Positions 2,924-64,000 of a stretch of 64,000 nt of DNA are shown here, one piece after another. The notes under the pieces are model-generated. The model worked only from the letters and a program-made list of their open reading frames with translations. It searched no databases and was not told where the DNA came from. A program made the translations under genes and the position numbers. How positions within the stretch are numbered: position 1 is the first letter of the stretch; each line of letters begins with the position of its first letter. This stretch comes from an uncultured Thermoleophilia bacterium (GTDB lineage Bacteria; Actinomycetota; Thermoleophilia; UBA2241), in the NCBI GenBank assembly GCA_963702475.1, contig CAVPCT010000006.1:160001-224000 (forward strand), in the 5' to 3' direction.

Positions 2924-4386
2924 GCAGGAAGATCAGCATCGATCCCATCACCCGCCTCGAGGGCCACGGCAAGATCGAGATCTTCCTCGACGACACCGGG
3001 GCGGTGCAGGACTGCTACTTCCAGATCCCCGAGTTGCGCGGCTTCGAGCGCTTCGTCGTGGGCCGTCCGATCGAGGAACTGCCGCGCCTCGTGACGCGCA
3101 TCTGTGGCGTCTGCCCGGCCAGCCACCACATGGCCAGCGCCAAGGCCGTGGACGGCTGCTTCGGCGGCGAGGTGGCTCCGCTGGCCGTGAAGCTCCGCCG
3201 CATGTACTACAACGCGCACTACATCCACAGCCACATCGCCCACTTCTACGCCCTGGCGGCGCCCGACTTCGTACTCGGGCCCGATGCCGACCCGGCCATC
3301 CGCAACGTTCTCGGTGTGGTGGCCAAGGTCGGGCTCGAGATCGGAGGCGCCGTGATCGCCTCGCGCGGCAAAGCGCAGGAGATCCAGCGCATCATCGGGG
3401 GGCGCTCCACCCAGGACATCTGGTGCATCCCGGGGGGCGTCGCCAAGGGCCTCAAGAAGGACGAACTGGAGCAGATCAGGCCCATGGTGGCCGAACTGTA
3501 CGACTTCACCCAGTTCTCGCTGCAGCTGTTCCGGGACATCGTCCTCGCCAACCCGACCTACCTGGACATCATCGCCAACGGCCCTTACACCCTGGACGTG
3601 CAGAACATGGGGCTCGTGGACGAGCACAACGCTCCGGACTTCTACGACGGTCAGGTGCGCGTGGTCGACTTCGAAGGCACGGAGATCTGCCGCTACGAGC
3701 CGCACCAGTACGCCGACTACGTGGCGGAGCACGTCGAGCCTTGGTCGTACCTCAAGTTCCCGTACCTCAAGCAGCGCGGCTGGAAGGGGTTCGTGGAGGG
3801 CATCGGCAGCTCCATCTACTGCGCCACACCGCTCGCCCGTCTCAACGTCGCCGACCGCATGGCGACGCCCCGGGCCCAGGAGGCCTACGAGGAGATGTTC
3901 GCGGCGCTCGGTGGGCACCCCAGCCGCATGCTCCTCGCCCAGCACTGGGCGCGGCTCGTGGAGATGGTCCAGAACGCCGAGGCGCTGCAGCAGTACTGCG
4001 ACGACCCCGAGATCACCGGCGATGCCTACCGCGTCATTCCCCAGCAGGTCACCGGTGAGGGGTTCGGCATCGTGGAGGCCATGCGCGGCACGCTGACGCA
4101 CCACTACACGTGCGACGAGAACGCCATCTGCACCAGCGCCAACCTGATCGTGGGCACGACCAACAACAACGCGCCCATCCAGATGGTCACGCGCAAGGTC
4201 GCCGAGACCCTGATCCAGCCGGGTGTGGAACCGGACCAGGGGATCCTCAACATGGTCGAGATGGCCTTTCGCGCCTTCGACCCCTGCTACAGCTGCGCGA
4301 CACACAGTCTTCCGGGCCAGATGCCCATGCGCGTGCGCGTGCACCGGGGCGGGGAGGTGACACATGACTTCAGGCGCGGCTGCTGA
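2920..4386 (+). CDS. mvhA: Group 3c [NiFe]-hydrogenase large subunit
   Basis: TRLEGHG, L1 RICGVC, L2 RAFDPCYSCATH with C-terminal cleavable extension; AAGGAG RBS; hdrA-mvhD context. Confidence 0.95.
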   Translation: MSRKISIDPITRLEGHGKIEIFLDDTGAVQDCYFQIPELRGFERFVVGRPIEELPRLVTRICGVCPASHHMASAKAVDGCFGGEVAPLAVKLRRMYYNAHYIHSHIAHFYALAAPDFVLGPDADPAIRNVLGVVAKVGLEIGGAVIASRGKAQEIQRIIGGRSTQDIWCIPGGVAKGLKKDELEQIRPMVAELYDFTQFSLQLFRDIVLANPTYLDIIANGPYTLDVQNMGLVDEHNAPDFYDGQVRVVDFEGTEICRYEPHQYADYVAEHVEPWSYLKFPYLKQRGWKGFVEGIGSSIYCATPLARLNVADRMATPRAQEAYEEMFAALGGHPSRMLLAQHWARLVEMVQNAEALQQYCDDPEITGDAYRVIPQQVTGEGFGIVEAMRGTLTHHYTCDENAICTSANLIVGTTNNNAPIQMVTRKVAETLIQPGVEPDQGILNMVEMAFRAFDPCYSCATHSLPGQMPMRVRVHRGGEVTHDFRRGC

Positions 4387-53611: not shown

Positions 53612-55321
53612 TCAGGCGCGGCGCGAGGCGCCGTCGCCCCGGCGCCCCAGTGTGCCTCCTTGCGCGAAGGCCGGATCGGCCGGCATGACGATGATGGCCG
53701 CCGGCCCCTCGAGCGGACACTTGTACTCGCAGATCCCGCAGCCGATGCAGCGGTCGGCGAGGACACGGGGCCGCTGCACGTAGTCCTGGCGGCCGTCCGG
53801 CTGAGTCGCCACCCGGCGCTCGTCCAGCACCACGGCCTTGGGCGCCACGGGGCACATCTCCTGGCAGACGATGCAGGGCTTGTCCTGGGCCCACGGCAGG
53901 CAGCGGTCCGTGTCGATGACAGCTACACCGAGCACCTGTTTCCGCTTCGCCTCCAGCGGCAGTCTGGGGATCGCCCCCGATGGACACACGTTGCCGCAGG
54001 CGGTGCACGAGTAGTCGCAGTAGCCCAGGCGGGAGGCCAGCACGGGGGTCCACAGGCCTTCCAGGCCCGCCTCCAGAAGAGCCGGTTGAAGACCGGAGGT
54101 GGGGCAGACCTTCATGCACTCGCTGCAGCGCAGGCAGTGGGAGAGGAATGCGCTCTCGTTCTGCGCGCCCGGCGGGCGGATCAGGCGCGCGCTCGTGGTG
54201 CCGCGCCAGACGCCGGTGCCCAGGAGGGCGACGGCGCCGACGCCGGCCGCCGCGGCCGTGAGGAACTCACGGCGGCCGGGGTCGTACTCCTGCCACGGGG
54301 CGGGCCGGTAGGCGGCGCCCAGCGTCATCGCGTCCTTCTCCGGACAGGCGACGAAGCAGTCGAGGCACAGGGTGCACTCGGAGGTGACGACGGCGGGACG
54401 GGTGGGCGCGGAGGCCGCGGGGCCGTCCGCGGCCGCGCCGGCGGAGCCGGCCTCCGCCGCGGGTCCACGGCCACCCGCCGGCTCGATCGCGTCGAGCCGG
54501 CACGACCGCACGCACGCGCCGCAGTCGGTGCATCCGTGACCCACCAGCGGGCGGAGCACCTGGACCTTGGCCAGGAGGCCGAGCAGCGCCCCGAGCGGGC
54601 ACAGGTAACGGCACCAGAAGCGGTCGGCCAGGGCGTTGAGCAGCACGACGGCGACGAAGAGCAGGAAGAGGGCGACGCCTTGAGCGAAGTGCGGCTGGTA
54701 GAAGGGGAGCACCTTGCCGCGCAGGGCGGACTCGACCCAGTCGACGAGCCCTCCGCCCACGCCCCAGCCGACGAGGGTCCGCTCGACGGAGTCGACCGCG
54801 TACACGAAGGCGGGCAAGAGCGACGTGGTGGCCGTGCGCGTGAGCAGCGAGATCGGGTCGAGGACCATCAGCGTGAGGCCGCCGAAGGTCGCCATCACGG
54901 CGATGACGCCGAGGAGCACGTACTTCGCGCTCTTGAGGCGCGGCGGCAGGCGCGGGCCCAGCCGCCGCGCCGTCTTGAAGCGCGACCACTCGAGGACCGT
55001 GCCGAGGGGGCAGATCCAGCCGCACCACACGCGGCCGAGGACGAGGGCCGCCACGACGGTGACGACGGCAGGCGCCAGGCGTGGCATCCACTCGCGGGCC
55101 GCGAGCATCGTGCCGAAGGCGGCGAGCGGGTCGAAGCGGAAGAAGAGGTCGACCCAGGACGCCGCCTCACGCCGCTGCAACGCCGCGAACAGCAGCGCGA
55201 CGAAGAGGACGAGCGTTACGACCTGCACGGCGCGGCGCGCCCAACGGGCGGCCTTCCAGCCGCCCGTCCGGCGCCGCGCCCCGGCGTCTTCGCCCGTGCG
55301 CGGCGGCGCATCCAGTCTCAT
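53612..55321 (-). CDS. Membrane polyferredoxin (NapH/MauN fused to NapG/MauM-like domain)
   Basis: GRVWCGWICPLG, RFWCRYLCPLG, multiple CxxCxxCxxxC, RREFL, IRPPGA..CLRCSECMKVCP. Confidence 0.85.
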   Translation of the reverse strand: MRLDAPPRTGEDAGARRRTGGWKAARWARRAVQVVTLVLFVALLFAALQRREAASWVDLFFRFDPLAAFGTMLAAREWMPRLAPAVVTVVAALVLGRVWCGWICPLGTVLEWSRFKTARRLGPRLPPRLKSAKYVLLGVIAVMATFGGLTLMVLDPISLLTRTATTSLLPAFVYAVDSVERTLVGWGVGGGLVDWVESALRGKVLPFYQPHFAQGVALFLLFVAVVLLNALADRFWCRYLCPLGALLGLLAKVQVLRPLVGHGCTDCGACVRSCRLDAIEPAGGRGPAAEAGSAGAAADGPAASAPTRPAVVTSECTLCLDCFVACPEKDAMTLGAAYRPAPWQEYDPGRREFLTAAAAGVGAVALLGTGVWRGTTSARLIRPPGAQNESAFLSHCLRCSECMKVCPTSGLQPALLEAGLEGLWTPVLASRLGYCDYSCTACGNVCPSGAIPRLPLEAKRKQVLGVAVIDTDRCLPWAQDKPCIVCQEMCPVAPKAVVLDERRVATQPDGRQDYVQRPRVLADRCIGCGICEYKCPLEGPAAIIVMPADPAFAQGGTLGRRGDGASRRA

Positions 55322-55383
55322 CCAGGTACCTCCGCGCCGCGCTCAGCCTGCGGCACGATGGTACTCCCGTGCGCCGCGCCGAC

Positions 55384-56979
55384 CTACTTGAAGCTCCAGC
55401 CGCCGACGAGCACGATCAGCGGGACCTCCACCATGGCGTCGCACCACGCCGCCGGCATCTGGACCACCATCGGCAGGAAGATCCGGCCGGTGGCGCGCGG
55501 GATCAGCGGCACATCGGTGTCCTTCTGCACCGTGAGCCTCAGGTCGTCCTGGTTCGCGAAGAAGAAGTCGTGGAAGGCGGTACGGTCGGACGACGTCACG
55601 TCCGGCAGGTAGTCGATGAGCGTGGCGGCTGTGGGGTCGACCGGGATCCAGCCATAGTCCGGCAGGTAGAACTCGGCCCAGAAGTGGCTGGACGGCGTGC
55701 CCGTGAAGACCTGGAAGCCGCCGGGCGTGCGCGCCGGGATGCCCACTGCGCGGCAGAGCGCCGAGAAGTAGATGCTCTGGGCGCCGCAGTCGCCGTACTT
55801 GTGCTCGTGCACGTAGACGGACTCTGCCTCGCCACGCGGGTAGAGGGCCAGGTGCGGCACGTAGCTGTACTTCACCGTCCGCACCACGTAGTCGTAGAGG
55901 AGCTTGGCGGCAAGGAACGGGTTCTTCTCGTCGCCCACGACCCGGTGCGCCGTGCGGCTGATCGAGGGCGTGATGCGCGTGTTCGCGTGCGAGGCCGTGT
56001 ACTGTCGGTACAGGGCACTGCCCGTGTCGTAGCGGCCCACGCGGGCCGGGTCGACCTTGAAGTACTGGGCCGCGTGACTGAAGGAGACGCCGAAGCTGAC
56101 GCCCAGGTCACCGTTGAGTGCCTGCAGCGGGATCCTCATGGCCAGCAGGCCGATGTCCGCGGCGGTGCTGGGTGGGTTGCGGATGAAGGCGGCCGGGGTC
56201 GGGTCGGTGATCCGCACGTCCGTCTGCGGCCCACCCTCGATGGGCAACGGGAACCAGAGGTCGAGATCGCCCTCGGCGGGGAGGTCGCCGCGCGGCGTAC
56301 CGAGGCTCTGTGTGAAGGCGTAGGCCTTGGGCGCGCCGTACTGCTGCCAGGCCGGGGTCGCGGCGCCGACGGCCAGGTAGGGCGTGAGCGTGTGGCAGAT
56401 CTCCCGGTACTTGGCGACCAGCGCGGTCTGGGTCTGGAAGAGTGCGACGTCCCGGAACGCGAGGTTCGTGGGGACTTCCTCGTAGTAGTGCGTGACGCCG
56501 TCCCAGCGCAGCGACTCGGTGCTCGGCAGGTCGAGCCAGGCGGCGCGCTGGGCCGCGGAGGAGTCGGGGTACCGGGTCGCCAGCAGGTCGAGCATCTGGC
56601 TCCTCGTGTAGCGGTAGCACAGACCGATCAGCTCCATGTCCTGCATCGCCACGAGACAGGCACGAGCTCGCCCGCTGTCGCCGTCGGCGAGGTAGAGCTT
56701 GCGGGCGCGGTCGTAGAGCGCGGTGGCCCGCGTGAACAGGTGGGCGCGCCGGAGGGAACGCGCCTGCTCGCGCAGCGCATCGGCGCGGGCGGTGGGGCCG
56801 GCGTGCAGGGCGGCGAGGTCTGCCGCCGGGCTGCGGCCGAGCGCGCCGGCCGGAGCGCCGGTGACCGCCAGCAGCGCCAGGACCGCGAGCAGCGCCGCGG
56901 CCGTCACCAGCGCGAGCCGGCGCGGGTCGACTCGTCGCGCGACGACGACTGCCGGTCGCTCAACCTTGCGGATGCTCAT
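55384..56979 (-). CDS. Secreted transglutaminase-like protein
   Basis: Signal peptide; GDC..LCRAVGIPAR, HFWAEFY, GWIPVDPT (Cys-His-Asp triad). Confidence 0.88.
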   Translation of the reverse strand: MSIRKVERPAVVVARRVDPRRLALVTAAALLAVLALLAVTGAPAGALGRSPAADLAALHAGPTARADALREQARSLRRAHLFTRATALYDRARKLYLADGDSGRARACLVAMQDMELIGLCYRYTRSQMLDLLATRYPDSSAAQRAAWLDLPSTESLRWDGVTHYYEEVPTNLAFRDVALFQTQTALVAKYREICHTLTPYLAVGAATPAWQQYGAPKAYAFTQSLGTPRGDLPAEGDLDLWFPLPIEGGPQTDVRITDPTPAAFIRNPPSTAADIGLLAMRIPLQALNGDLGVSFGVSFSHAAQYFKVDPARVGRYDTGSALYRQYTASHANTRITPSISRTAHRVVGDEKNPFLAAKLLYDYVVRTVKYSYVPHLALYPRGEAESVYVHEHKYGDCGAQSIYFSALCRAVGIPARTPGGFQVFTGTPSSHFWAEFYLPDYGWIPVDPTAATLIDYLPDVTSSDRTAFHDFFFANQDDLRLTVQKDTDVPLIPRATGRIFLPMVVQMPAAWCDAMVEVPLIVLVGGWSFK

Positions 56980-57094
56980 GGCGTGCTCCCTCGTCGCCGG
57001 TGTACCCCCTGCGGTGTGTCGGCGGTTTCGAAGGGCGCCTTGAGCGTGTGAGGCGCCGCTTGACGGCCGTGCCGCCGCTCGTCTACCATCCGCG

Positions 57095-57260
57095 GCGCTT
57101 GGAGATGCCCGCGAGGGCCTCGAGGGAAGCCGGTGAGATTCCGGCGCGGACCCGCCGCTGTGACCGGGGACGACGGCTGCACGAAGCCACTGTCAGCTCG
57201 CTGACGGGAAGGCGTAGCCGAAGGACGATCCGGGAGCCAGAAGACCTGTGTCCAAGTGCG
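57095..57260 (+). ncRNA. Cobalamin riboswitch 1
   Basis: GGGAAgccGGTGagattCCggc, cccgcc-gCTGTga, GCCACTG..GGGAAGG, B12 box GAGCCAGAAGACCTG; upstream -10 TACCAT at 57084. Confidence 0.92.
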
Positions 57261-57324
57261 CTGTCGACGCTCTGCGTGGTGAACGGAGCGGCGGTGGCGC
57301 GTGCCGTGGCTCCGAAAACGGGGG

Positions 57325-57365
57325 GCCCGGGCCCGACGAAGTGTCGGCCCGGGCTTTTGTTGTTG
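57325..57365 (+). terminator. Intrinsic terminator (riboswitch expression platform)
   Basis: gcccgggcccgac..gtcggcccgggc followed by ttttgttgtt. Confidence 0.85.
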
Positions 57366-57385
57366 GTGGAGCGAAAGGCGGTGCG

Positions 57386-57535
57386 ATGAATGCGATCAGG
57401 GTGCCGGCGAGCCCTCACTGTGAGGGCGGATCAGGGGCGTGTGAGCGGCGCCACGGCCTCACAGCGGCCGGACTGCGCGTGCGCGCGCTCACGGCCGCGG
57501 TCTTGCAGTCGTTGCGGGCGGGGACGACGAGGTGA
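57386..57535 (+). CDS. Possible 49-aa leader ORF
   Basis: AAAGG RBS-like sequence, ATG 57386, stop overlaps GTG of dehydrogenase (GTGA). Confidence 0.3.
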   Translation: MNAIRVPASPHCEGGSGACERRHGLTAAGLRVRALTAAVLQSLRAGTTR

Positions 57536-58659
57536 CGGCCGAGGATCTCGCCGCCAACGGTGTGAGGCCGGCGGTCGGCACGATGCAGGCCGTCCTCGTC
57601 ACGGCGGTCGGAGCGTACTCGGTCGGCGAGCTGCCGGTGCCCTTGCCCGGACCGGGCGAAGTCCTCGTCCGGGTGGGCGTGACCGGCCTCTGCCGCACCG
57701 ACCTCAAGATCATCCGGCATGGGCACCGCGACCTGGTGCTGCCCCGCGTGCCCGGCGAGGAGGTCGTCGGGGAGATCGTGGCGCTGGGGGAGGAGGCGCC
57801 GGCGGCCGCAGGCCCTTCCGGCGCGTCCGCCTCGGAGCGCGCCTTCGCCGTCGGCGATCGCGTGTACGTGTACCCCGGCGTGTGGTGCGGTGAGTGCCCG
57901 AGCTGCCGGCGCGGCGCCGAAAACCTGTGTCGCGCCATGCGCATCATGGGCTTCCACCGCGACGGCGGCTTCGCCGAGTACGTCGCGGTCCCGCTGCAGA
58001 GCCTGATCCCGGTACCTGACGGCCTGCGCGACGAGGAGGCCGTGTTCGCGGAGCCGCTGAGCTGCTGCCTGAACGCCCTCGAGCTGGGACGTGTGGGCGA
58101 CGGCGACGCGCTGGGCATCTGGGGGGCCGGCCCGGCCGGCACGCTCCTCTGCCGGGCCGGCGCCCTGCTCGGGGCCGTCCCGTCCGTCGTCGAGCCCGAT
58201 CGGCGCCGGAGCGACTACGTCGTCGGCGCCCCCGGCACGCCGCCCGCGGCGACGTTCTCGCCCGAGCCGCCGGCCCAGGTCGACGTCGCCATCGTGGCCG
58301 TCGGCGACCCGGCGGCGTACGAGCAGGCTCTCGCCGCTCTGGCGCCTCGCGGCCGGATCGTCGTCTTCTCCGGCCTGCTGCCGGCCGCTGGACGACGCCT
58401 TCCACGTGAGCCTCAACAGCGTGCACTACCACGAGCACACACTGGTCGGCGCCTACGGCTGCTGCTTCCGTCACGGCGAGGACGCGCTCGCCCTGCTCGC
58501 CGGCGGCCGCCTGCGCGTCGGACGATCTCATCAGCCACCGCCTGCCGCTTGCCGACCTGAAGGCCGGCCTCGACGCCGTCGCCGGCCGCGCCGGCATGAA
58601 GGTCCACCTGTACCCGGGCGCCGTGCCCGCCGACCTGCCACCCCGAGGAGACCACATGA
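57532..58659 (+). CDS. Zn-dependent medium-chain dehydrogenase (threonine/sorbitol DH-like), +1 frameshifts near 58390 and 58521; 3' end uncertain
   Basis: GLCRTD, PGEE (GHE variant), CGECPSC..NLC, DGGFAEY, AEPLSC, GAGPAG, VHYHE..GAYG, LISHRLPL, MKV. Confidence 0.85.
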
Positions 58660-59792
58660 CCAGCGAGACCGACCTGCGCACCTTCGGGGCCGACGTCCAG
58701 CGGCTCATCGAAGGGCACGACCTCTCCCGCCGTCGCACCTACGAGCTGTTCCGTGACGTGCTGCTGGGCGAACAGCCCGAACTTCAGCAGGGGGCGTTGC
58801 TGGCGGCGCTCGTCGCCAAGGGAGAGACGCCGGAGGAGATCGCCGGCGCGTGGCAGGCTATCGTCGAGTTCGACACGGTGCCGGCAGCCGTTGACGCCTC
58901 CGGCGCTCTCGTCGAGAACTCCGGCACCGGCATGGATACGCTCAAGACGTTCAACGTAAGCTCGGCGGCCGGGGTGATCGCCGCCGCGGCCGGAGCGCGG
59001 GTGGCGCGTCACGGTGCCCGCGCCCTCACCAGCCGCTGCGGGGCCGTGGACATCCTCGAGGCCGTCGGCGTCGACGTGGACTGCGACGGTCCCACTGTGG
59101 AGCGCAGCATCCGTGAGGCCGGCATCGGCATCTTCAACGGCATGAGCCCGGCGGTGCACCCGGGCGGTCTCGGCCGCATCCTCAGCCAGATCCGCTTCGG
59201 CTCGACCCTCAACATCGCCGCCTCGCTGGCGAACCCGGTGCGGCCGACACGCGGCGTGCGCGGGGTCTACAGCGACGCCATGGTCGGACCGGTCGGCGAG
59301 GTGATGCTGGAGATCGGCTACGAGCACGCGCTCGTGGTCCACGGCTTCGGAGAGCGGCGTGAAGGCGGCGGCATGGACGAGCTCTCCGTGCTCGGCCCGA
59401 GCCTGGTCGCGGAGCTGCGCGCCGACGGGCGCCGCGACTCCTTCACCGTCGAGCCGGAGGACCTGGGGATCGAACGGGCGCTGCACGCCGACATAGCGCC
59501 GCTTGAAGATCTGCGGGCCGAGGCCCTCAGGTTCCTGCAGGTGATCGCCGGCCGCGGCGCGCAGGCGTGTCAGGACGCCGCCTGCCTGAACGCCGCCGCG
59601 GTGCTGTACGTCGCGGGCCAAGCCCCCGATTTGGCCGACGGCCTGGCTCTGGCGCGTGAGGCCGCCGGCAGCGGCGCCGCCCTCCGCAAGCTTGAGGAGT
59701 GGGTGGCGGCGCAGGCCGGCGGGGCCGAGCGTCGCGCCGCCGGCGAGGCCCGCCTCGCCGCTCTCCTCGAGGAGGCCGGCCTGGGACTGTGA
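58656..59792 (+). CDS. Anthranilate phosphoribosyltransferase (TrpD)-like paralogue with altered acceptor site
   Basis: KGETPEEI, NSGTGMD..TFNVSS, ARHGAR, GAVDILEAVG, SLANP, GMDE, NAAA.LY; GAGGAG RBS. Confidence 0.87.
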   Translation: MTSETDLRTFGADVQRLIEGHDLSRRRTYELFRDVLLGEQPELQQGALLAALVAKGETPEEIAGAWQAIVEFDTVPAAVDASGALVENSGTGMDTLKTFNVSSAAGVIAAAAGARVARHGARALTSRCGAVDILEAVGVDVDCDGPTVERSIREAGIGIFNGMSPAVHPGGLGRILSQIRFGSTLNIAASLANPVRPTRGVRGVYSDAMVGPVGEVMLEIGYEHALVVHGFGERREGGGMDELSVLGPSLVAELRADGRRDSFTVEPEDLGIERALHADIAPLEDLRAEALRFLQVIAGRGAQACQDAACLNAAAVLYVAGQAPDLADGLALAREAAGSGAALRKLEEWVAAQAGGAERRAAGEARLAALLEEAGLGL

Positions 59793-59883
59793 GGCGGCCG
59801 GACGAAGGGCCTGCGCAGTCGCGGTGGAGCAGGACGTCGAGCCTGCCGGGGAAATGGAGGTGAGACATTTTCTCAGATTCGGT

Positions 59884-59912
59884 TTGACGGCCCCTTGACG
59901 CGGGGGTAGCCT
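59884..59912 (+). promoter_or_regulatory. Sigma70-type promoter of the cob operon
   Basis: TTGACG-17-TAGCCT immediately 5' of riboswitch 2. Confidence 0.75.
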
Positions 59913-59918
59913 TCTTCC

Positions 59919-60070
59919 GCTGTCTCTCGACTGCAGGGAAGCCGGTGCAAGGCCGGCGCTGCCCCGCAACTGTGAGCGCTGACGAAAGCCGCAGAGTGCC
60001 ACTGCCCTCGGGCGGGAAGGCGCGGCCGGTAGGACGAAGCGCGAGCCAGGACATCTGGGCCGGGAGACCA
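59919..60070 (+). ncRNA. Cobalamin riboswitch 2
   Basis: AGGGAAgccGGTGcaaggCCggc, GCCCCGCAACTGTga, GCCACTG..GGGAAGG, GAGCCAGGACATCTG. Confidence 0.92.
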
Positions 60071-60100
60071 TCGCGACGAAGGCCTCGAGGGAGGGCTGCG

Positions 60101-60793
60101 GTGCAACTGATACCACCTCACGGACGTCTCATCCTCGTCACCGGCGGCGCGCGCAGCGGCAAGAGCTCGTACGCCGAGCGGCTCGCGGCGCAGCTGGCCG
60201 AGCCGGGCGACGGCACGGTCACGTACATCGCCACCTCCCAGGCCTACGATGAGGAGATGGAGCAGCGCGTGGCCGCTCATCAGGCGGCCCGGCCAGAAGG
60301 CTGGACGACGGTGGAGTGCTCGCTGCACGTGCCGGCCGCCGTACTCGCGGCCGCAGATGCTGCGGCTGGGGACGGCGCCGGATCGCCCGGCTCCGCCGGC
60401 CCCCCCGTCGTCCTCCTCGACTGCGTCACCCTGTGGGTGACGAACCTGCTCTTCAGCGGCGGCGCCTTCGGCGGCAGCGCGCCGCCTGACGACGGTTACA
60501 ACTGGGACAAGGACCTGCTGCCGCCGGCCGAGGAACGGGCGGCGGCCGAGCGCGTGACGGCCGCCGTCGAGGAGCTGCTCGGCGTCGTCGCTCGCGCCGG
60601 CGTCACCCTCGTCGCCGTGACCAACGAGGTGGGGCTCGGCGTCGTGCCCGAGTATCCCCTCGCCCGCTTGTACCGGGACCAGCTCGGCTGGGCCAATCAG
60701 CGCCTCGCGCGCGCCGCGGACAAGGTGTATCTCCTCGTCTCCGGCTTCCCCCTGGACGTGAAGGCCCTGGCCGTGCCGGACCCCATCCGCTGA
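60101..60793 (+). CDS. cobU: Adenosylcobinamide kinase/phosphate guanylyltransferase
   Basis: TGGARSGKS, YIAT, DEEM..R..HQ..RP..W.T.E, LDC.TLW..NLL, VTNEVGLG, RDQLG. Confidence 0.95.
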   Translation: MQLIPPHGRLILVTGGARSGKSSYAERLAAQLAEPGDGTVTYIATSQAYDEEMEQRVAAHQAARPEGWTTVECSLHVPAAVLAAADAAAGDGAGSPGSAGPPVVLLDCVTLWVTNLLFSGGAFGGSAPPDDGYNWDKDLLPPAEERAAAERVTAAVEELLGVVARAGVTLVAVTNEVGLGVVPEYPLARLYRDQLGWANQRLARAADKVYLLVSGFPLDVKALAVPDPIR

Positions 60794-60819: not shown

Positions 60820-61905
60820 ATGACCGACCTTCTCGACGCCACTCTCGCCGCCATCCAGCCGCTCGACGCCGCCGCGATGCGCGCGGCCGAAGAGCGCCAG
60901 CTGCACCTCACCAAGCCGCCCAAGGCGCTCGGCCGCCTGGAGACCATCTCCATCCAGCTCGCGGGGATCCAGGGCAAGGACCAGCCGCGGATCGAGCACA
61001 AGGCCATCGCCGTGATGGCCGCCGACCACGGCGTGACCGCCGAGGGCGTGAGCGCGTTCCCGGCCGAGGTTACGCCTGCCATGGTCTTCAACATGGCCGC
61101 CGGCGGGGCCGGCATCAACGTCATCGGGCGGCACGTGGGCGCCCGCGTCGTCGTCACCGATGTCGGCGTGAACGCCGACCTCAGCGCCGCGCCGGGCGTT
61201 CGCCAGGAGAAGGTCCGCATGGGCACGGCCAACATGGCGCACGGCCCGGCCATGACCCGCGACGAGGCCGTCCGCGCCATCGAGATCGGCGTCCGCGTGG
61301 TCGAGGACGAATTGAAGAACGGCCTGGACGTGATCGCCACAGGCGAGGTGGGCATCGGCAACACGACCGCCGCATCGGCGGTGATCGCCGCCCTGACCGG
61401 CGAGCCGCCGACCACCGTCACCGGCCGCGGCACCGGCATCACCAAGGACGCGCTGCCGCGCAAGGTCGCGACCATCGAGAAGGCGCTCGTCACCAACAAG
61501 CCCGACCCGTCGGACCCCATCGACGTGCTGGCCAAGGTCGGCGGCCTCGACATCGCCGCGATGACCGGCGTGTTTCTGGGCGGCGCGGCGCATCGCGTCC
61601 CCGTGGTGATGGACGGATTCATCAGCGCGGCCGCCGCGCTCGCCGCCGCGCGCCTTTGCCCCGAGTGCGTCAACTACATCCTGCCAAGCCACGTGAGCAT
61701 CGAGATCGGCCACCAGGTCGTCCTGAACGAGCTGGGACTCACGCCGCTGTTCGACCTCGAGATGCGCCTGGGCGAGGGGACCGGGGCGGCGCTGTCGATG
61801 AGCATCATCGAGGCCGCCGCCCGCATCCTCAGCGAGATGGCGACGTTCGAGAGCGCCGGCGTGGCCGGCGACCCCGCCGAAGCCGACGCCGACCTGACCA
61901 GGTGA
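60820..61905 (+). CDS. cobT: Nicotinate-nucleotide:DMB phosphoribosyltransferase
   Basis: LTKPPKALGRLE, AADHGV, GEVGIGNTT, GRGTG, DGFIS, MRLGEGTGA, MATF. Confidence 0.97.
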   Translation: MTDLLDATLAAIQPLDAAAMRAAEERQLHLTKPPKALGRLETISIQLAGIQGKDQPRIEHKAIAVMAADHGVTAEGVSAFPAEVTPAMVFNMAAGGAGINVIGRHVGARVVVTDVGVNADLSAAPGVRQEKVRMGTANMAHGPAMTRDEAVRAIEIGVRVVEDELKNGLDVIATGEVGIGNTTAASAVIAALTGEPPTTVTGRGTGITKDALPRKVATIEKALVTNKPDPSDPIDVLAKVGGLDIAAMTGVFLGGAAHRVPVVMDGFISAAAALAAARLCPECVNYILPSHVSIEIGHQVVLNELGLTPLFDLEMRLGEGTGAALSMSIIEAAARILSEMATFESAGVAGDPAEADADLTR

Positions 61906-61958: not shown

Positions 61959-62957
61959 GTGAGCGATCGCGGTGACTGGTTCGATGACGCCGGCGCCGGT
62001 CTTGGCGAGGTGTCCGCGGATGCCGAGGGACGCGACGGGCGCCGCCGCGAGACGGAGCGGCCGAAGGCCATGCCTGCGGCCGAGGAGCTCGCGGCGCTGG
62101 CCGCCGCGCGCGAGCAGCGCGGCGCGCCCGACGAGGCGGTCGAGGAGGTCCCCGGCCCGGCGGCATCCGGCGGCCCGGTCCGGCAGCTGACGCTCGCCGT
62201 CACCTTCCTCACCGGCATCCCGCTCAAGGTCGAGGGCGTCGTCTCGCCGCGCGACCTGTGGCGCAGCATGGGCTGGTACCCGCTCGTCGGGCTCGTTATC
62301 GGCGCGGTGGCGTGGGCGGTGTATGCCGGGCTGACCTACGTGCTGCCCGGCCTTGTCGCCGCGATCCTCGTCGTCATCCTGTTGGAGCTGCTCACGCGCG
62401 GCTTGCACATGGACGGCGTGATGGACACCGCCGACGGCATCCTCAGCGGAGCCCCCCGCGAGCGCGCGCTGGTGATCATGAAGGACCACAACGTCGGCGC
62501 GATGGGCGTCGTTGCGGCGGTCCTGCTGCTGCTCCTGAAGGTGGCGGCCCTGGGGGCGCTGGCGCGTCCCGAGGCGGCCGCCCCGCTGCTCGCCGGGTGG
62601 GCGGCCGCGCGCGCCCTGCCGGCGCTCGACGTGTACCTGTGGCCGTACGCGCGTCCCGCCGGCACCGGCGAAGCATTCACACGCGAGCGCAGCCTCGGGC
62701 CCGTGGGGCTGGCGCTCGGGTTCCTGGCGGCCGCCGTGGTCGTGGCCGGGGTCGCCGGTCTGACGCTCGACGCGCTCGGTTCGTGGTACGCCGGCCTGGT
62801 GGCCGCCGCCGCGTCGATGGCCGTCGCGCTGGGCGTCCAGGCGCTTGTGGCGCGTAAGCTGGGCGGCCTCACCGGCGACGTGTACGGCATGGGCATCGAG
62901 CTGGCCGAGGCCACCGCGCTCGTCACCGGCTGCGTCGTCGTGGGGGTGCTGCTGTGA
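61959..62957 (+). CDS. cobS: Cobalamin (5'-phosphate) synthase with acidic N-terminal extension
   Basis: FLTGIP, YPLVG, GLHMDGVMDTADG, IMKD..VGAMG, GGLTGDVYG. Confidence 0.95.
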   Translation: MSDRGDWFDDAGAGLGEVSADAEGRDGRRRETERPKAMPAAEELAALAAAREQRGAPDEAVEEVPGPAASGGPVRQLTLAVTFLTGIPLKVEGVVSPRDLWRSMGWYPLVGLVIGAVAWAVYAGLTYVLPGLVAAILVVILLELLTRGLHMDGVMDTADGILSGAPRERALVIMKDHNVGAMGVVAAVLLLLLKVAALGALARPEAAAPLLAGWAAARALPALDVYLWPYARPAGTGEAFTRERSLGPVGLALGFLAAAVVVAGVAGLTLDALGSWYAGLVAAAASMAVALGVQALVARKLGGLTGDVYGMGIELAEATALVTGCVVVGVLL

Positions 62958-63794
62958 AGCTGTACCTGGTCAGACACGGCCAGTCGACGGGCAACGTCGG
63001 AGAGCAGCTGATGGGGCAGAGCGACCATCCGCTCACGCCGCTCGGCGAGACCCAGGCGGCGGCGGCCGCCCAGCGGCTGGCGCCGTTCGGCCCGATGCCC
63101 GTGTACCACAGCGACCTGCCGCGCGCCGTGGCTACGGCGCGGTCCATCGCCGAGGCCTGGCGCGCGGACGCGGCGGCGCGCCGGGGGCAGCGGCCGGGGC
63201 GGCGCGGCCGGCGAAGCCGCACCGGCTCCTTCCACGCCGCTCCTGTTCTCGGATCCCCGCCTGCGCGAGATCAGCCTCGGCGAGTACGAGGGTGCCTCGT
63301 GGGAGCGGTTCGAGGCCGACGCGGAGCTCATGGCGGCGTTCGAACGGGACCCCTACGGCACGGCCGTGCCCGGCGGTGAGTCTCTCGCGCACCTCGTCGA
63401 CCGCGTCATCGCCGCGGTGCGCGACATCCTCTCCGCGCACGGCGTGACCGACGACCACGCGCTGTCCACCGAGGCCGTGGCCACGTCGGACGCGAGCGCG
63501 CTCGCCACCGGCTTCCACCTGCCGCCGCAGGGTGAGGCCGCCTGCATCGTCGCCCACGACGGGCCCATCCGCGCCATACTGAACCACTACCTCGGGGTGC
63601 CGCCGGAGAAGTGGTGGACCTTGTCCACCACCCACGGCGGCGTCTCTCTGCTCGAGTTCAGTGGCGGCTGGGTCAACGTACGCTACGTGAACGCCGCAGA
63701 ACACCTCGCCGGCCTGGAGCCGGACGTCTACGTGCCCACTATGGACGACCCCGGCGTCGACGCCGGCGGCGACACTGCTCCACGGCCCGGCTGA
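62954..63794 (+). CDS. cobC: Histidine phosphatase, alpha-ribazole phosphatase-like (+1 frameshift near 63178)
   Basis: LVRHGQ, SDLPRA; next frame DPRLREISLGEYEG, PGGES, VAHDG.IR; cob operon context. Confidence 0.8.
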
Positions 63795-63805
63795 CGCCTC
63801 GTCAC

Positions 63806-64000
63806 ATGACCGCGAGACCCCTGCACGACGACTGGCGCTTCGCCCTCTGCACCGTCCTTCTGGCCGGCGTCATGGACGTCGCCCTCGGTGAGCCGCCGGC
63901 CCGCGTGCACCCCGTGGTGTGGATGGGCCGGCTGATCGGCGCGCTGGAGCGGCGCCGCCCACAGGACCGACCGGTCGCGGAGCTCGCCTACGGCGTGCTC
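63806..64000 (+). CDS. cbiB: Adenosylcobinamide-phosphate synthase CbiB (3' truncated by window)
   Basis: Own translation MTARPLHDDW..MDVALGEPPARVHPVVWMGRLI matches the CbiB N-terminal G(D/E)P..HPV motif. Confidence 0.85.
   Translation, partial: MTARPLHDDWRFALCTVLLAGVMDVALGEPPARVHPVVWMGRLIGALERRRPQDRPVAELAYGVL

Follow-up and report, generated by a model that had tools for sequence, protein, structure and literature searches.

The window analysed here is a 64,000-nucleotide stretch of contig CAVPCT010000006.1 from an uncultured Thermoleophilia bacterium. Near its 3' end, two enzyme genes lie under a cobalamin riboswitch (RS1), one for a zinc-dependent dehydrogenase of the medium-chain dehydrogenase/reductase (MDR) type and one for a phosphoribosyltransferase resembling TrpD. 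An earlier reading, made from the letters of the window alone (the sequence-only reading), had proposed this pair as a candidate cobamide biosynthesis module. Rfam and Pfam matches confirmed the layout that it described, in which RS1 heads the two genes upstream of a second riboswitch (RS2) and cobU-cobT-cobS-cobC-cbiB. The features of the locus are as follows:

57060..57089, + strand: promoter-like site TTGACG-18-TACCAT, just 5' of RS1 (consensus pattern match only)
57086..57267, + strand: cobalamin riboswitch aptamer RS1 (RF00174, 101.7 bits, E 2.8e-24, full model 1-189)
57322..57366, + strand: terminator-like GC hairpin (about 57322-57357) followed by a U-rich run, a candidate expression platform (RNA fold)
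57583..58659, + strand: Zn-dependent MDR dehydrogenase, threonine/polyol-dehydrogenase-like, interrupted in the assembly (ADH_N, 95.8 bits)
58656..59792, + strand (open reading frame from 58596): TrpD-like phosphoribosyltransferase, 378 aa from the ATG at 58656 (Pfam and NCBIfam)
59873..60076, + strand: cobalamin riboswitch aptamer RS2 (RF00174, 88.1 bits), heading cobU-cobT-cobS-cobC-cbiB

Both aptamers exceed the RF00174 gathering score of 31.5 bits over model positions 1-189, and these two, both on the + strand, are the only Rfam matches in the 64-kb window. They share about 60% identity with each other. Orthologues of RS1 in relatives of the same genus are 82-91% identical to it, or 75% in the decayed locus of genome G002 described below. 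RS1 had been called a clear riboswitch with a terminator. The riboswitch half of that claim is borne out by the RF00174 score, and the terminator half less so: a consensus pattern scan found no terminator 3' of RS1, while RNA folding of positions 57268-57380 (minimum free energy -62.2 kcal/mol, z -3.54) gave the hairpin and the U-rich run. The promoter-like site was a single match in a consensus scan against 0.1 expected in shuffled sequence. On the opposite strand 5' of RS1 (window 53615-57192, - strand) lie genes for a transglutaminase-core protein and a multi-[4Fe-4S] ferredoxin-domain protein, and this synteny is kept in G002.

The TrpD-like protein and its dehydrogenase partner

The TrpD-like protein matches PF00591 (167.4 bits) and PF02885 (56.7 bits) and passes the cut-off of TIGR01245 (243.2 against 199.05 bits). 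Its best solved matches are anthranilate phosphoribosyltransferases (E 1e-47), and databases give it that name. A database twin, also of 378 aa, starts at the ATG at 58656. The cobamide proposal hinged on this copy not being the only TrpD of its genome, and it is not: three genes of the TrpD fold are present, scoring 292.5 bits (on another contig), 168.7 bits (the window copy) and 137.3 bits. The highest-scoring is the canonical trpD, which sits between trpE and trpC on contig C3 with a PALP (trpB-like) gene near, and the window protein is only 34% identical to its product. No homologues of TrpE, TrpC or TrpB were found in the window, in agreement with the earlier statement that no trp genes are nearby. 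Nine of the 10 pair-holding genomes examined likewise have a separate, higher-scoring canonical TrpD. In the tenth, a Methanothrix metagenome-assembled genome (MAG; G076), two full pairs were found and a canonical copy was not. These pairs lie on different contigs (L124:1432-3852, - strand; L127:405-2574, + strand), which duplication, strain mixing or an incomplete bin could explain. In relatives from other genera of the same class, only canonical matches at 31-39% identity were obtained. On contig C3, about 5 kb from the canonical trp cluster, a gene for a B12-binding-domain protein (PF02310 and PF02607; L119:12100-12927, + strand) stands beside a GntR-family regulator.

A quick IQ-TREE run was made on 61 rows, namely 51 TrpD-like proteins (the window copy, the 49 of alignment A2 and the copy from L124) and 10 canonical ones. 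A branch with a support of 100 and a length of 2.42 + 1.08 sets the TrpD-like rows apart. The window protein groups with TrpD-like proteins of Desulfobacterota (support 100), which suggests that the gene was transferred between phyla. The 49 bacterial and archaeal proteins are unusually alike, with a mean column identity of 60%, and the motifs GTGMD, (K/R)HGAR, GIGIFNGMS, IRFGTxLN, SLANP and DE are invariant or nearly so. The canonical counterparts, taken from five relatives and the structure 9UCW, read GTGGD, KHGNR, GIGFMF, LGxRTxFN, GPLTNP and DE. We take the Gly loop, TFNxS, the Lys and DE of the fold to bind Mg and phosphoribosyl pyrophosphate (PRPP), and the Asn of KHGN and the Arg of GxRTxFN to bind anthranilate in TrpD. 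On that reading, the TrpD-like protein would have kept PRPP binding and changed its acceptor. Models of nucleoside and AMP phosphorylases (TIGR03327, TIGR02644) scored 25-46 bits against cut-offs of 409-535.

Relatives were collected by a pattern scan with one genome per species, which gave 229 confirmed relatives; the best 80 loci, at 50-81% identity, were kept. Gene content was read with a crude open reading frame caller and BLAST clusters, representatives of 53 clusters being compared with Pfam, and high-GC loci were read by tblastn. In 76 of the 80 loci, tblastn placed an MDR gene of the same family next to the TrpD-like gene, both on one strand. The other four are L053, L056 and L086, which are cut by contig ends, and L048. 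Both gene orders occur, mostly with the MDR first, and the reverse order is seen in ANME-1 (anaerobic methanotrophic archaea) and Aquificota. By their record titles, the bacterial holders are Thermoleophilia, Syntrophobacteraceae, Smithella, Desulfobacterales, Dehalococcoidales, Peptococcaceae, Desulfitobacteriaceae, Dehalobacter, Calditrichales, Kiritimatiellia, Omnitrophota and Aquificota; the archaeal ones are Methanothrix, ANME-1 (Methanophagales) and Methanomassiliicoccales. Cultured holders include Desulfofarcimen acetoxidans DSM 771, Desulfosporosinus youngiae and Dehalobacterium formicoaceticum. TrpD-like proteins form at least about 2,000 clusters. One natural fusion of the two proteins, with both domain sets, is in the database (P0125, 732 aa). 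Open frames of 668-789 aa in high-GC relatives were also considered as Rosetta-stone fusions, and were rejected as mostly chance read-through in another frame. A prediction of a complex between the two proteins from alignments A1 and A2 scored 0.00, under the mark, and carries no weight either way. The MDR and TrpD-like genes are an obligate, often translationally coupled pair across anaerobic bacteria and archaea.

Members of the MDR family match ADH_N and ADH_zinc_N in Pfam. Residues C37, C93, C96, C99 and C107, which are the catalytic Cys and the four structural-zinc Cys, are invariant across the family. The closest solved relative is a putative Zn-dehydrogenase (4EJ6), followed by archaeal L-threonine 3-dehydrogenases. 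Every equivalog model scored far below its cut-off. With the threonine dehydrogenase models TIGR00692 and NF003808, the window fragment reached 106 bits and an intact member 170 bits, against cut-offs of 458 and 380.

In the window, the dehydrogenase gene is interrupted, a point that the sequence-only reading missed when it named, correctly, a Zn-dehydrogenase. The called open reading frame (57532-58560) holds a complete ADH_N domain, but its ADH_zinc_N match of 25 bits is below the cut-off. The ATG at 57583 agrees with the N-terminus of the family. From there the protein is read in frame 1 as far as about 58389. Frame 2 takes over at about 58388 and holds up to about 58519; frame 0 carries the rest, starting near 58521, and runs free of stops into the TrpD-like gene. 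DNA alignment with six relatives revealed a 10-nt insertion in the variable tail of the window gene and one extra base at each break:

58388..58391, + strand: extra G at the first frame break
58519..58521, + strand: extra G at the second frame break

DNA alignment also showed that, in the relatives, the TGA stop of the MDR gene overlaps the ATG of the TrpD-like gene as ATGA. The extra base is absent from all three contigs of public sequencing runs that cover the first break (X1, X2, X18) and from both that cover the second (X2, X18). These contigs belong to related but different strains, 90-95% alike, and stretches that they do not cover carry no meaning.

We consider assembly errors about three times as likely as real mutations, because the shifted segments still encode conserved protein, the nearby cobC-like gene also shifts frame, split genes occur in other genomes of the genus, and the public-run contigs cover both sites without the extra bases. 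If both extra G are errors, the MDR and TrpD-like genes would form one fused frame in the window strain. The contrary view is that the frameshifts are real and the module is a recent pseudogene in this genome, which is a separate matter from what the module does elsewhere. Two one-base insertions together with a 10-nt insertion would suit such decay, and the module is dispensable in the genus, where G002 keeps a decayed MDR remnant and G053 an empty slot. Since both shifted segments keep a fully conserved protein sequence, indel errors are made plausible by the cobC frame change and the split genes, and near relatives lack both extra bases (although they are other strains), we regard a pseudogene as rather unlikely. 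The GGACGA context common to both insertions was uninformative, as this motif is frequent in the genome (3,204 sites).

Cobamide genes and riboswitches around the pair

The homologue search confirmed the link to cobamide genes and riboswitches on which the proposal depended. Rfam was run on 52 bacterial loci, with L036, L051 and L053 left out and archaeal loci outside the scan. A cobalamin riboswitch lies 75-245 nt upstream of the MDR gene in 36 of the 52 (14 from Thermoleophilia, 22 from other phyla). Of the 16 loci without a near riboswitch, four lack upstream sequence and eight lie behind cob, btu or hem genes; the riboswitch of L027 is further upstream, and L048, L072 and L079 show none. 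Cobalamin riboswitches are, to our knowledge, unknown from archaea.

By tblastn, cob, btu or hem genes are present in 34 of the 80 loci, and in 10 further archaeal loci an archaeal CobT is encoded next to or near the pair (TIGR00303, 302.6 bits for the cluster representative, cut-off 240). A cobT gene of the bacterial or archaeal type is present in 34/80 loci; cobT is the commonest direct neighbour, and it often immediately adjoins the pair, as in Dehalococcoidales, ANME-1 and Methanothrix. Arrangements among the eight bacterial loci that lie behind cob, btu or hem genes include cobD-cbiB-MDR-TrpD-like-cobT, cobQ-MDR-TrpD-like-cbiA, btuF-TrpD-like-MDR-rSAM-btuFCD-cobU-cobQ (rSAM, radical S-adenosylmethionine protein) and hemB-MDR-TrpD-like-hemL. 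All five holders tested from other phyla have cobS. Within the genus, the TrpD-like gene occurs in 21 of 54 genomes and cobT in 50; every one of the 21 holders has cobT, at most 6 kb away on the same contig in 20 of them. These genomes are kin and not independent, so the genus counts serve as a description of the pattern only.

Other genes recur around the pair. An ABC-2-type permease gene stands just upstream of cobT-TrpD-like-MDR in ANME-1 (L056, L066) and of riboswitch-MDR-TrpD-like in Dehalococcoidales (L070), where an ABC ATPase gene is beside it. Methanothrix-type loci (L065, L076, L081, L087, L091, L098, L103) have an AI-2E-family transporter and an MtaB-like radical-SAM methylthiotransferase after the pair, and the methylthiotransferase also follows it in L050, a low-GC Actinomycetota MAG. 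Two flanking riboswitches of other kinds were seen, one for molybdenum cofactor/tungsten (L070:2145-2266, - strand) and one of the c-di-GMP-I-GGC (cyclic di-GMP) type (L041:9204-9278, + strand).

In the window itself, the operon behind RS2 contains:

59945..60793, + strand: cobU, cobinamide kinase/guanylyltransferase (PF02283, 182.9 bits; true start probably later in the open reading frame)
60820..61905, + strand: cobT, nicotinate mononucleotide (NaMN):base phosphoribosyltransferase, DBI_PRT (PF02277, 455.6 bits)
61959..62957, + strand: cobS, cobamide synthase (PF02654, 165.1 bits)
63012..63791, + strand: cobC-like histidine phosphatase, His_Phos_1 (PF00300, 78 bits, two stretches)
63611..64000, + strand: cbiB, running past the window end (PF03186)

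The cobC-like gene (window 62848-63716) changes frame, with tblastn matches in frame 2 and then frame 3 and a break between 63148 and 63228, which points to indel errors in the assembly. Further 3', beyond the window end, lie a cobD-type aminotransferase, cbiD and methylases, cbiJ, cobA, cysG/hemD and cbiMNQO. From these cbi and cob genes, the host is predicted to have an anaerobic de novo cobamide route. In its genome (assembly 93.8% complete), nothing passed the BluB cut-off (best 63.7 against 150 bits) and no gene of the ThiC/Bza family was matched. The same holds for the genus, where BluB over the cut-off and the ThiC family were each found in 0 of 54 genomes, with or without the pair. On these counts the genus would have neither the customary synthase for the thiamin pyrimidine nor either of the two known routes to benzimidazole, though cobT is in 50 of its 54 genomes. 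The pair itself belongs to neither the BluB nor the ThiC family, consistent with the claim that neither of its families is part of the described nucleotide-loop and lower-ligand pathways.

To see what stands in the place of the pair, the region upstream of cobT was compared in nine pair-less genomes of the genus. In three of them (G023, G068, G015), a riboswitch shares 84-91% identity with RS1, as against 57-66% with RS2. This RS1 orthologue heads genes for a permease, an NMT1/THI5-like binding protein and an ABC ATPase, and RS2-cobU-cobT follow. In a pair-holding MAG (L027), a single riboswitch heads the importer genes (permease, binding protein, ATPase), after which come the MDR and TrpD-like genes and then RS2:

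L137:2693-5959, - strand: RS1-controlled importer, pair-less genome
L142:3405-6490, + strand: RS1-controlled importer, pair-less genome
L138:5307-8330, - strand: RS1-controlled importer, pair-less genome
L027:1766-4742, + strand: importer in one operon with the pair, pair-holding MAG

The best solved relative of the importer's binding protein is the formylaminopyrimidine binder ThiY (3IX1, E 6e-35); in L027, the binding protein is encoded at 3109-3996. No ThiY-like importer was found in the window genome. In G053, RS1 and RS2 are arranged in tandem, separated by about 230 nt that hold no gene (L139:2351-2964, - strand), and in G002 an 89-aa MDR remnant remains between the two (L145:5634-6833, + strand); these arrangements look like stages of module loss. 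The other four genomes (G007, G064, G072, G010) have one riboswitch in the stretch compared, and that of G007 is nearer to RS2 (74%) than to RS1 (60%). One orthologous riboswitch is thus predicted to control the pair, a heterocycle-type importer, both, or nothing. We regard this exchange as the strongest hint that what the pair provides is a small compound also open to uptake.

In several genomes of the genus, a gene for a large protein combining clostripain (Peptidase_C11) and BNR repeats lies between the pair or the importer and RS2-cobU (L028:7241-9721, L029:7494-9926, L033:2296-4728, L008:2747-4108 and L138:2538-5057). The database protein P0124 (787 aa) looks like a read-through from the TrpD-like gene into that gene.

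Possible functions of the pair

The reading that we prefer, and to which we give an even chance, is that the MDR and TrpD-like enzymes, repressed by B12, act as an accessory module from which CobT receives a lower-ligand base or the precursor of one. When cobamide is plentiful, RS1 with its terminator-like hairpin would turn off the two-gene operon. When the operon is on, the TrpD-like enzyme would form an N-(5-phosphoribosyl) bond that joins PRPP to a heteroaromatic compound or aryl amine other than anthranilate, or would break such a bond in reverse, the MDR would carry out an NAD(P)-linked redox step on the intermediate, and the product would enter CobT and then CobS. The riboswitch control, the pairing, the linkage to cobT and other cob genes, the paralogy beside a canonical TrpD and the altered motifs were observed, whereas what the enzymes act on, which of them acts first and what they make are inferred. 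The sequence-only reading had offered a lower-base role as one of two options, and this option gains indirect support from cobT as the commonest neighbour and from the ThiY-like importer under the orthologous riboswitch.

Several observations weigh against a supply role. The pair is optional, in 21 of the 54 genus genomes against 50 with cobT, and the MDR is out of frame in the assembly, so the module may be dead in the window strain. No complementarity with the known base routes was seen, with BluB and the ThiC family missing from all 54 genomes regardless of the pair. Other holders give no clean pattern either, with 0 to 3 ThiC copies and BluB in 0 of 5, and two Methanothrix holders carry two to three ThiC paralogues, possibly BzaF. 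There is also a chemical objection. PRPP-dependent transfer gives beta-ribotides and cobamides need alpha-ribotides, which CobT already makes; therefore the pair could not simply replace CobT. One specific product, the unsubstituted purine of purinyl-cobamide, was considered and rejected: Desulfitobacterium hafniense would be expected to hold the pair and is not among the best 120 homologues (at least 60% identity) of a Desulfitobacteriaceae TrpD-like protein, which is not proof of absence.

A bolder form of the supply reading, which we think possible but doubtful, makes the pair a hitherto unrecognised, oxygen-independent two-enzyme route that produces a heteroaromatic lower-ligand base for CobT from PRPP-linked central metabolites or liberates it from a nucleotide, a third route beside BluB and Bza. 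It would have spread horizontally among syntrophs, methanogens, ANME archaea, organohalide respirers and soil Thermoleophilia, and would be interchangeable, within one genus, with a ThiY-like importer that brings in the same compound under the control of a B12 riboswitch.

The pair could instead serve the nucleotide loop in another way, the TrpD-like enzyme regenerating NaMN, the ribosyl donor of CobT, from nicotinate and PRPP, or building a base beta-ribotide that the MDR turns into the alpha form through transient oxidation. The frequent cobT neighbour, the conserved PRPP and Mg motifs and the place of the MDR within the polyol/sugar-phosphate dehydrogenase group would all fit. However, regeneration of NaMN requires no dehydrogenase, yet the two genes are inseparable (76/80); CobT is already present in all holders examined; and a ThiY-like importer in the RS1 slot suits a base better than a nucleotide. 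We also know of no precedent for an MDR anomerase, and we consider this reading improbable.

The other option of the sequence-only reading, the aminopropanol linker, is weakened by our results. Here the MDR would be a threonine dehydrogenase or an aminoacetone reductase that provides (R)-1-amino-2-propanol for CbiB. Archaeal L-threonine 3-dehydrogenases are the best solved relatives after 4EJ6, the pair adjoins cobD-cbiB in several loci, and a threonine kinase annotation (pduX) is missing from most verified producers (PMC6461909). The scores of 106 and 170 bits are nevertheless far below the threonine dehydrogenase cut-off of 458, and a cobD of the threonine-phosphate decarboxylase type in the same clusters would make such a route redundant. 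The strictly co-inherited PRPP enzyme would have no role in it, and in Dehalococcoidales a riboswitch separates cobD-cbiB from MDR-TrpD-like-cobT-cobS-cobC. This leaves the linker role little probability.

Slighter still is the chance that the pair stands outside cobamide synthesis and replaces a cobamide-dependent reaction when B12 is scarce, as the B12-independent metE and nrdD do. The OFF logic of the riboswitch suits isozymes as well as biosynthesis, and in many loci the two genes form an operon of their own with no cob gene beside it. Archaeal loci, though, still have the pair beside cobT, several bacteria have it inside cobD-cbiB...cobT-cobS-cobC or btuFCD operons, and no cobamide-dependent reaction open to bypass by a PRPP transferase and a dehydrogenase is known to us. 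Least credible of all is an ordinary second anthranilate phosphoribosyltransferase linked by chance, with an unrelated alcohol dehydrogenase, to B12 genes: the TIGR01245 score, the database name and the one Methanothrix MAG with two pairs and no canonical TrpD found would be in keeping with it, but the riboswitches (36/52), the MDR pairing (76/80), the separate clade, the altered acceptor-site motifs, the failure to find trp genes in the window and the canonical TrpD of 9/10 holders all speak against it.

Significance and comparison with known systems

The type of cobamide that a microbe makes depends on the lower ligand. The pair occurs in key anaerobes (Methanothrix, ANME-1, Syntrophobacter, Smithella, Dehalococcoidales, Dehalobacter), and if it supplies or reshapes a lower ligand, it would close a hole in the known pathway, make cobamide type easier to predict from genomes and matter for how methanogenic and dechlorinating communities share cofactors. 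So far, lower-ligand structure could be predicted from genomes for only 58% of predicted producers (PMC6461909). Whatever the function of the pair, there is a warning for annotation, since thousands of genes that carry the name anthranilate phosphoribosyltransferase probably have no part in the tryptophan pathway. Full-text literature searches turned up no functional account of the pair, and an earlier mention in Rodionov et al. 2003 or Yan et al. 2018 is possible. A figure legend on population variation in Chlorobium names trpD, a dehydrogenase and cobalamin genes among its abbreviations, and the legend itself makes no comment on them (PMC8620254). The enzyme families and the regulatory logic are known, and the pair, which probably carries out an undescribed step, would be a new variation within them.

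Compared with TrpD (TIGR01245; PF02885 and PF00591; 9UCW, 4YI7, 1ZVW), the TrpD-like protein has the same fold family and two-domain layout, and both keep the GTGxD loop, TFNxS, KHG and DE. The two are only 34-39% identical, and the TrpD-like proteins form their own clade with a support of 100. Unlike TrpD, they have GTGMD, KHGAR, a three-residue FNG insertion and IRFGTxLN in place of LGxRTxFN, and they are never in a trp context, come with a B12 riboswitch and are always paired with an MDR. That partner shares ADH_N and ADH_zinc_N, the catalytic and structural-zinc Cys and GxGxxG with threonine 3-dehydrogenases and polyol dehydrogenases (2DFV, 2DQ4; 4EJ6). It differs from them in falling below every equivalog cut-off and in a family-specific GHRDL-x-LPR stretch, and the Thermoleophilia copies have Glu at the position of the zinc-ligand His (GEE against GHE in the family).

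Among cobamide systems, the bza operon of anaerobic benzimidazole synthesis also places lower-ligand genes alongside cobT, and in anaerobes bza genes are under cobalamin riboswitches. The pair differs from it in having only two genes, of other families, with no ThiC-family or B12-radical-SAM protein. The bza operon, which is also cited in PMC8620254, comprises bzaA/B or bzaF, cobT and bzaC-E. The pair consists of enzymes and not of a transporter plus a kinase, in contrast to CblT/CblS salvage and the ThiXYZ importer (3IX1), and it resembles these in being a small, optional, riboswitch-controlled module of the kind that feeds in a ready lower-ligand part.

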